Part shown: positions 39,801-42,800 of the stretch, piece after piece
How positions within the stretch are numbered: the first letter of the stretch is position 1
How the letters are laid out: each line of letters opens with the position of its first letter
From: Podarcis erhardii
Taxonomy: Eukaryota
Length of the DNA: 64,000 nucleotides
Strand: one strand, 5' to 3'
NCBI GenBank assembly: GCA_964252035.1
Contig: OZ176213.1
Made by a program: the position numbers and the translations under genes
The notes under the pieces: generated by a model
What the model was told of the DNA's origin: nothing
The model's input: the letters and a program-made list of their open reading frames with translations, nothing else
Databases searched by the model: none

Positions 39801-42800
39801 CCGGACTACGCTTTAGACGAACCTCTTCTGAAAGACGAGTTCCATGCACTTTTCCCGCATAGACCCATGCCAGCCGAGTATTTTGATGACTGGCTCTTTA
39901 CGCCCACACTTTCAGACAGTACTTTCAGGGGCTTTTCTTCCGCCGAGGAGAGAACGCCAGACTCAAGCCCGCCCAGGGGATCATGTTCGGGGGTAGACGC
40001 AGAACCCTCTTATTGGTGGGACGAGCAACCAGAGGAAGACTGGCGCAAGAAATGGCTGACGGGGCCTTGGCAGGCAGCACCAGACGACGTACCAATGGAA
40101 GAGGGAGCTGAGAACACCTTGGGTGAAGAACCCAAGTTCGAACACACATACACCGAGCTGCTAGCAGAGGACATTGAAGTACACGAACTGTATCCTGCAT
40201 CTACCTCCGAGGAGCTGCAGCTCCCACAACCTGCCCCCGAAGGGCGGGAGGGGGGGGCTTCGAGGGGGGGATGGATGTCAGGGGTTCAAGGAGAGAGGCG
40301 CAGATGAGGGAGGAGACAGAGAGCGAGGGGGAAGGATTCCAGGGTGACGAGGAAGAGGACGACAATGACCCAAGATTGTCCATGAGTCCGTCCAGTGAAT
40401 CGGAGGACTCCCAAAAGGGAGCCCCCCTGGGCAAGCCAAGGGGAGCTAGAGGGGGAAGCAGTCAGGAGCAGGGGAACGAAGGGGGAACCCCCAGGGGGAG
40501 TTGGAGATCGGGACCGGCTTCTCCGCCGGAACGGAGTGAAGGGGGTGGAGTGACCAGTGTGTCAGAAGGAGCAGAACAGGAAGCAGAGAGGGGAAGGAGA
40601 TCGGGGCAAGACGTCCTGCCGAAAGGGGCGGAGAGTAGTACCGAGAGCAGTGTAACTGTCGGGGGGAAGGTCAGAAGCAACGTACGAGCGCCAAGTTCAA
40701 AATGGGAGGCGCGCGGAAGTGAAGAGAGTCCTGGGGAGGAGCCTGGTCCCAAAGCGCGAAGGAGGGGGGAGGAGGCGCCAGAGGATTCAGCCTCTGGAGA
40801 GTCCCGAAGGGAGAGAACACAGGGGGGCAGAAAGACCCTGCGGAAAAGGAAGGAGAGGAAGAGGTGGAACAGTACAAGCCTCTTAAACTGGTGTAGAGGC
40901 GGGACTGACTCAGAGGGGACTTCGGCGGTCTAAGCGTAACAGACGTAGAGCCACGGAGCTCGGATGTAAAGCTAAGAATGTTCTTTAATAAAAGCTTTTG
41001 TACATAAGCCGGACTGGACTTTGGTCTCTTGTGAGCTGGGACCACGGGTGGCTCTGACACATGTGTTCTAACCTCCAAAGAGATAACACATTTTGAAGAG
41101 TTAAGAAGCAGAACTGGCTTACCTGCTTCCTGCTGCAGTTGTCACAACTGACTTCAGGGTGTTCCTTGCAAAACCTAGAGTTGAAGCCTGTTTCCCCAAA
41201 GTAGGCCAGCAGCTGTACTCTCCGGCACTCCACGATATTCTCACAGTAATGGACCATGCTGTAGAGATTGTTGAAATGTGTCTGCCGTGTGTGGCTGTTC
41301 CCATCTTTTTCCACTGAAATTCAAATATTGCACCTTTTGACTTATTATGGAACATACACACAAAGCGAGAGATTGCTTTTCCTTCTGACCAATAATTTAC
41401 AGACATGTATGAAGAAGCAGCCAAAAGGTTCAAACTTTAAGTTTGTGAGCTGGGTTTCAACCTTTTTTAGTAGGATACACAGAAGAGAAAGGAATGAGAC
41501 ACTGCAGCATTTTTTCCATATAAAAATTGAGAAGTTTATGAGAAAGGAATTCTTCAGGAAGTTTACAGTATTTTTAGTCTCCTATGGCTAGATGCTGCAC
41601 ACTGCTTGTTCCAAGCAACCTAAATGAAAACACTTAAAGCCTAAAACTTGAGAGGCAAACGCCAAGTCATTCTATTGCAGGCGGTGCTTCTATGTTTTAT
41701 AGCCATGATGGCTGAAGTGGGCTGCTAACACTGTTCTTTGACAACAATTATAAAATTATCCCCCCCCCCCACACACATTTAAGCCCATTCTTGCATGATT
41801 ATGGTCACAAGATTTGAGATGTCGCAAAGAAATGCTTACTAAATATGAGTCTTCTCAGCCTGTTGACATCACTATAGGTGTAGAAGAGCAAGCAGTGAGA
41901 AATTTCTCCATCACGCCCAGCTCTGCCCGACTCCTGATAGTAACCTTCAACAGATTTAGGAAGAGAGGCATGGATCACAAAGCGCACATCAGGTTTATCA
42001 ATCCCCATGCCGAAAGCAATGGTTGCACATATAATCTGGAAGAGAACAAAAACAGGATTTGCATACTGCCAAGGGCAAGCAGTGCATCACAAACACACTT
42101 TATACACTGAACTGACACAGTGCTTTCTGGCTTGATACTCTGATCGACTTCCAGCTCACCTCAAGGAGGGTAAAGAGGAACACATACACAAATCCATTGA
42201 GAAAGGCCGCAGAAAACTGACCAGCTAAACAGACGGGGCCATTTGTTTTGCCACAGGAGCTAACAACCATTTAGATCTGTGATGGCTACACCCTATGTTC
42301 GTTTTTAATATTTCTACTTATGTGTGATATCAGCACCTTCTATAGTTTCGTCTCCTTTACCTGACACCCGTCCTGATTAATCCACTTCTGCTGCACATGG
42401 TCTCTGGTGCTGTCCGTGAGACCAGCATGATAGGCAAGTGCAGAAAGGCCAGAGCTCTGCAAAGTGCTGGCAACTGAGTCACATTCGTATCGGGAGAGGC
42501 AATAAATTATCCCAGAGTCATCTAAAGAAAAAGAAAAAACAGGCAAAATATGGGAGCTGGAGTATTCAGTCCTCTCAAATAAAGTAAATTAAAAGTGACA
42601 GTGGAAGTCGCACACCCCTCTGAGCTACATTTCACAGAACTGAAGAACTTTCTGACAGTGGTAGCTGTTTGATAGTGGAACGGACTCCTTTGGAAGGTGG
42701 TGGCCTCTCCTTCATTGGAGCTTTTTTAAGCAAAGGTTGGGTGGCCACCTGTCATGGATGCTTTAGTTGAGATTCCGGCATTGCAGGGGGTTGGACTAGA

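Follow-up and report, generated by a model that had tools for sequence, protein, structure and literature searches.

The nef gene of HIV and the sag gene of MMTV both overlap the U3 region of the long terminal repeat (LTR) and are translated from the 3' LTR copy; they are separate genes, carried by spliced or separately promoted RNAs of their own. Ty1, which is a copia-type element, binds AC40, and the tail of its integrase is not known to be encoded by the LTR. In lentiviral integrases, the folded core makes the contact with LEDGF, and no TIM is known to be involved. The layout closest to the one described here belongs to plant chromoviruses. As far as the available parts of the sources go, the Pol/integrase coding sequence of CRM group A continues past the polypurine tract (PPT) into the 3' LTR (PMC3059260), the same extension of Pol into the 3' LTR is given for the beet elements Beetle7 and Bingo1-4 and 7 (PMC3605345), and a CR motif replaces the chromodomain in CRM group A (PMC3059260; PMC3605345). 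Of two further sources, likewise available in part, one states that some chromoviruses use hairpin priming and does not use the term 'ORF' (PMC3601003), and the other names LEDGF for retroviruses only (PMC12477314).

The window analysed here, a stretch of 64,000 nucleotides from the lizard Podarcis erhardii, contains a Ty3/gypsy element with both LTRs (34549-41059; this and all features below lie on the + strand unless another is given). The TSD CATGT flanks it on both sides (34544-34548 and 41060-41064), and its two LTRs of 784 bp each (34549..35332 and 40276..41059) differ at one site only, A34588/G40315, a synonymous GAA/GAG change already reported in a first-pass annotation of this DNA. 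The element lies antisense within an intron of a RecQ helicase gene (40985-42588, - strand; RecQ_Zn_bind and Helicase_C), which we take to be BLM-like, no more than about 100 nt from an exon. In sequencing run X2, a contig joins both flanks without the element (34542-41059), which corresponds to an empty-site allele and indicates that the insertion is recent or polymorphic. The gag gene (35393..36469) presents Retrotrans_gag, Ty3_capsid and a zinc knuckle. In the -1 frame relative to gag, a first part of pol (36307..39339), with PR, RT, RNase H and the integrase core, is cut by the loss of 1 nt near 39339; a second part (39340..40250), with SH3_Tf2-1, a chromodomain-like region, an FxGF motif and an acidic linker, stops at the loss of 7 nt near 40251. 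The heptamer GGGAAAC at the gag/pol overlap (36409-36415), which is also the slippery site of PEG10, is a likely -1 frameshift site. The PR-RT-RH-IN order together with SH3_Tf2-1 is that of Ty3/gypsy chromoviruses (Tf1/sushi), and the closest matches outside lizards are fish Tf2-like proteins.

A self-priming site of the Tf1/sushi type, without the TGG start of the tRNA type, occupies the 10 nt 35335..35344 after the 5' LTR. It is complementary to 35186..35195, the inferred RNA 5' end (start of R), and this pairing backs the transcript start proposed earlier. A self-priming duplex of 10-11 nt was found in 4 of the 7 elements examined, and both strands of the pairing co-vary between elements, with paired changes in the copies L034, L079 and L163; the change that separates the window copy from L034 is silent when read in the frame of the Pol tail. 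A second copy of the R-start sequence lies inside the last Pol codons (40913-40922), and the comparison of these elements indicates that the duplex site bears an RNA-pairing constraint as well as a coding one. In the 5' LTR, nearly the whole copy of the U3 frame precedes the inferred transcript start; translation of the frame would be possible only in the 3' LTR portion of the RNA, a point on which the first-pass annotation was right. Farther 3', the PPT (40258..40275) contains an ATG at 40271 and is read through in frame in sibling copies, and an AATAAA poly(A) signal (40987..40992) follows the Pol stop by 54 nt.

The U3 frame itself (40271..40933) is open for 220 codons, with 0, 5 and 9 stops in the three + frames; our recount agrees with that of the first-pass annotation, which had proposed this frame as a candidate accessory gene, independent of pol and started at an ATG within the 3' copy. 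The peptide also has the layout described there, an acidic start, a disordered S/E/G-rich spacer and a basic, NLS-like end. The tail closes on a basic cluster and an L-L-x-W-C motif (40829..40894), the most constrained part of U3 and a likely NLS or chromatin contact. The peptide matches no Pfam family, and a single-sequence AlphaFold model of the tail (mean pLDDT 39.5) was uninformative. When U3 was shuffled at the dinucleotide level, a fully open + frame was obtained in 48 of 5000 sequences, and whole-LTR shuffles gave an open run of at least 218 codons in 20 of 5000 on the + strand and in 193 of 5000 on either strand.

Comparing the window copy with its siblings revealed a different origin for this frame. 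In siblings from its own family (family A, as opposed to family B, a second family in the same genome), Pol is one frame of up to 1547 aa that crosses the PPT and the entire U3 and ends at the same stop. Relative to these siblings, the window copy is shorter by 1, 9 and 7 nt near 39339, 39747 and 40251, respectively, and all three deletions are private to it. A genome search with the last 43 codons placed 10 of the 150 matches listed in frames of 1473-1547 aa. Twenty copies were fetched, 10 chosen for long frames and 10 for shorter ones: the bases absent from the window copy were present in all of them (+1 and +9 throughout, +7 in 19 and +6 in one), and in 16 a frame of at least 449 aa crossed the PPT into U3 and ended at the same stop. 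Because this sample had been picked partly for long frames, the sampling was repeated twice on other criteria. Among 30 loci picked by LTR likeness alone, 7 were 3' LTRs, and the 7 nt were present in all six of these other than the window copy. Finally, internal DNA was used to pick the 29 nearest copies: none had the junction of the window copy, and in 21 the frame continued from the integrase tail as far as the U3 stop; of the 8 without read-through, 3 owed it to a slip in the G-run of the PPT that gives a short end of the window type, and one more was shifted otherwise at the junction.

The stand-alone frame is therefore a lesion of the window copy: a loss of 7 bases split the last ~220 Pol codons off in this copy alone, and this damage gives the end of Pol the appearance of an accessory gene. 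We put at about 0.85 the probability that the U3 frame is a real, selected coding sequence which forms the C-terminal end of the Pol/integrase frame. The G-run of the PPT (40264-40270) is a recurrent slippage site, with a short integrase in several independent copies, and the junction is also slipped in the Podarcis entries P0003 and P0155; such repeated slips suggest that a short integrase may be tolerated.

The same layout is present in other families. In family B, the copy L079 has a 1529-aa frame through U3, with 7, 0 and 5 stops in the three frames, and a full-length frame was found in 1 of the 17 loci fetched, the others being broken at various places. Nine family-B loci (L079, L081-L084, L086, L091, L092 and L094) also share an open frame of 220 codons that lies over the integrase core but out of frame with it. 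Read-through of the same junction is seen in UniRef proteins of Podarcis muralis, and P0002, a Podarcis UniRef protein of 1498 aa, has the same layout and 49% identity over the last 358 residues. More distant families, with LTRs of about 410 bp, were found via HMMER matches. Their LTR count started from 20 loci, 3 of them without chromodomain and 7 others without an LTR pair, and left out L166, where the repeat found was not its LTR pair; Pol ended 305-331 nt inside the 3' LTR in 6 of the 9 loci with a valid pair. In these families, the junction reads V-D-V-R, with no ATG, and the tail closes with a basic stretch followed by L-L-C-W. In each of the three families checked, Pol terminates 20-24 nt beyond the priming partner, the length of the U3 tail ranges from about 100 to 218 codons among families, and the read-through layout is common to at least four of them. 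Older related families appear to pile up strongly on contig C19 (30 Mb), as expected of a W chromosome.

These comparisons bear directly on the alternative closest to the first-pass proposal, in which the U3 part functions by itself as a nuclear accessory protein, either cut by the protease from a product made in the Pol frame or translated from an internal start at the PPT ATG. Families A and B and the Podarcis proteins P0002, P0004 and P0005 all retain the ATG at 40271, but it sits within the PPT, which constrains it anyway, and the distant families have a Val at this position; the next Met, at 40304, is missing in family B and P0002, so that a conserved start belonging to the frame itself was not recovered. 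The disordered and accessible tail and its basic end would both fit a free nuclear protein, while the continuity of the frame in 21 of the 29 nearest copies and the lack, in the sequence, of an evident RNA start upstream of U3 argue against it. We consider this alternative unlikely, and a separate accessory gene does not agree with the copies in which the junction is intact.

Selection on the U3 tail was estimated at several distances. Between families A and B, U3 had a pN/pS of 0.49 (0.39-0.62) and a dN/dS of 0.30, against 0.41 for the linker outside the LTR and 0.03-0.07 for the enzymes; the constraint on U3 falls far short of that on the enzymes and is close to that on the non-LTR linker. 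In a frame-blind DNA alignment of U3 between the two families, mismatches at the three codon positions numbered 57, 72 and 98 (p 0.003) and the net indels were multiples of 3, and on this point, the coding nature of U3, the first-pass annotation holds. Within family A, the U3 variants shared between copies had a pN/pS of 0.35 in frame (0.47 without CpG sites) versus 1.22 and 0.80 in the other frames, and in the last 47 codons the shared variants, 7 in number, were all synonymous. A previous synonymous excess of 8 to 0 was discarded because the copies had been picked on that very peptide, and the count was repeated with copies chosen for their internal DNA. Over the whole U3, the contrast between shared and singleton variants was not significant (p 0.16), and the U3 variants listed for 30 near-identical LTRs (22 synonymous and 40 non-synonymous, including 3 stops) looked nearly neutral. 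The end of the frame overlaps TATA-like and priming sequences, and part of its conservation may thus be cis-acting. Taken as substitution patterns, these data indicate that purifying selection acts on the U3 protein frame. Two candidate motifs of the tail were rejected since they are not conserved: E-G-F-Q-G-D at the start of U3, which resembled FxGF, and a D-S-S-P-P stretch, which we took to recall the Ty5 targeting motif.

The read-through could also be incidental, that is, the Pol stop was lost and U3 is merely kept free of stops and non-aggregating, or a stop near the poly(A) site avoids RNA decay, the tail having no specific job. About 1% of shuffles of the T-poor U3 contain an open frame, the middle of U3 is of low complexity and variable length, and slips at the junction recur, all of which this explanation would accommodate. 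It does not account for a dN/dS of 0.25-0.30 with conserved islands between families, for the 7 to 0 synonymous excess of the last 47 codons, or for the basic and LLxW end, retained in distant families by different codons, and we judge it improbable. We prefer the reading in which the U3 tail is the selected end of Pol, and it likely works as part of the integrase.

Other features of this integrase tail lie upstream of U3. The region 39714..39863, which includes the 9-nt loss near 39747, is a probable degenerate chromodomain that has lost its aromatic cage residues. In the sibling L034, it gave a weak match to HP1/CBX5 (E 0.008), with the cage aromatics missing in the aligned part, and the family A region had no Pfam Chromo match; the distant relatives P0132 and P0134 exceed the Pfam Chromo cut-off. 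Only the Trp of the cage is kept in the distant lizard families, whereas most fish relatives have Y/W/Y. Directly 3' of the chromodomain-like region, a TIM-like motif (39873..39950) is composed of a putative aromatic helix, an S/T linker of 8 residues, an FxGF core (39924-39935) and S-S-A-E-E, and constitutes a predicted LEDGF/HRP2-binding site. In the available parts of two sources, TIMs are described as a helix, an acidic linker of 8-16 residues and an optional FxGF, the latter being required by all known LEDGF and HRP2 partners (PMC9987994; bioRxiv 10.1101/624023). The helix-like sequence pattern before the linker is F-x-x-W-L-F in family A and L-Q-E-V-F or W-x-x-V-F in the distant families, and the spacing of 8 residues matches that of the JPO2 and PogZ motifs we fetched. 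The linker has 8 residues, S/T-rich with one Asp, in family A and 8-9 residues, D/E-rich, in the distant families; since the former is not acidic, docking on LEDGF or HRP2 would depend on phosphorylation.

The conservation of the motif was followed within and between families. Over the 32 codons round FxGF, families A and B differ by 17 synonymous and 7 non-synonymous changes, and the F, G and F codons are recoded silently. FxGF is present in 18 of 19 distant-family loci, with two copies in 13, these loci having been found with motif-bearing queries; a lone FxGF came up in 2% of shuffles of the window-family tail, and two came up in 0.04% of shuffles. It was also found in 13 of the 15 Podarcis proteins examined and, among fish relatives, in the tails of none of 10 (P0160 and P0162-P0170, database gene predictions). 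A complex predicted without alignments between the lizard LEDGF IBD and the window-family FxGF peptide had a score of 0.01, which was counted neither way. We give slightly less than an even chance to the proposal that the TIM-like motif tethers the integrase to a TND protein.

The following scenario could link these features. Gag-Pol would be produced by a -1 frameshift, and the protease would free an integrase retaining the SH3, the cage-less chromodomain, the FxGF motif, the disordered spacer and the basic/L-L-x-W end. This basic end would then deliver the pre-integration complex to the nucleus or to chromatin, a role of nuclear-import signal that we regard as probable. The TIM-like motif would in turn hold the complex on gene bodies marked by H3K36me2/3 by way of a TND protein, with LEDGF or HRP2 as the likeliest candidates. 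Because reverse transcription copies one LTR into the other, U3 would have a double role, as promoter in the 5' copy and as coding sequence in the 3' copy. In evolutionary terms, a clade of lacertid-lizard chromoviruses may have swapped the reading of heterochromatin for gene-body targeting by losing the cage and gaining one or two mimics of the LEDGF/HRP2 motif and a tail as long as U3; the evidence leaves this conversion a tentative proposal, with the balance tilted a little against it. The opposite idea, that the tail is a targeting domain similar to the CR motif and directed to centromeric or W-chromosome heterochromatin, would suit a layout like that of CRM group A (in the available part of PMC3059260), the pile-up of distant families on contig C19 and several family-B matches near contig ends, but we hold it for very improbable, given that young family-A copies are scattered over every large contig, that the window copy lies within an intron of a gene, that the chromodomain is without its cage and that a pile-up on a non-recombining chromosome requires no targeting.

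The integrase reading sketched above, with a selected tail encoded in U3, has several consequences. A vertebrate gypsy clade encodes 100-218 Pol residues in its promoter region, under selection, in a layout that we found only for plant chromoviruses. In the main text of openly accessible papers, our literature search found no vertebrate gypsy Pol overlapping U3 and no TIM in a retrotransposon integrase; the LTR overlap may already stand in a repeat-library entry (Repbase or Dfam). Binding of the FxGF motifs to LEDGF or HRP2, if it occurs, would represent an independent origin of LEDGF-guided integration, in which a retrotransposon hijacks the host tether of HIV, but through linear-motif mimicry, and the choice of sites by vertebrate gypsy elements would become testable, as thousands of young insertions exist. 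Solo LTRs, for their part, disperse preformed acidic/NLS coding cassettes by the thousand, a stock from which host genes could acquire exons.

How the lizard element relates to the systems already described can now be specified. The fish sushi/Tf2-like elements (Labeo, Cirrhinus and Hemibagrus) have the same Gag-PR-RT-RH-IN-SH3-chromodomain order and a basic stretch after the chromodomain; they differ by a mostly Y/W/Y cage and a short R-G-R-P basic tail, as read from gene predictions. In P0160 and P0162-P0170, an AT-hook-like R-G-R-P and an R-R-R-L-P-x-R stretch follow the chromodomain, and in a lizard family C, the LTR-encoded tail ends in R-R-R-L-P-R-R, similar to the fish stretch. The TIMs of JPO2, PogZ, MLL1 and IWS1 resemble the lizard motif in their helix ending in Phe, which is putative on the lizard side, their linker of 8-9 residues, their FxGF and their acidic flank (available part of PMC9987994). 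Unlike these cellular TIMs, the lizard motif sits in a retrotransposon integrase, its linker in family A is S/T-rich and not D/E-rich, and its binding is predicted. The integrase of Ty1 offers a parallel in that short motifs of its tail set nuclear import and site choice (PMC7459421, in part). With CRM group A, as the accessible text describes it, the lizard element shares a Pol ORF that reaches into the 3' LTR; it differs by its vertebrate host, its self-priming, a chromodomain-like region kept upstream of the PPT, and an LTR part of 100-218 codons that fills U3 and ends inside R. Its family A copies are dispersed, and no similarity with the CR motif is apparent. Having its chromodomain-like region upstream of the PPT, the element is CRM-like in layout and not a CRM member. 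Finally, unlike nef and sag, with which a coding U3 invites comparison, the lizard frame has no conserved ATG and is continuous with Pol.
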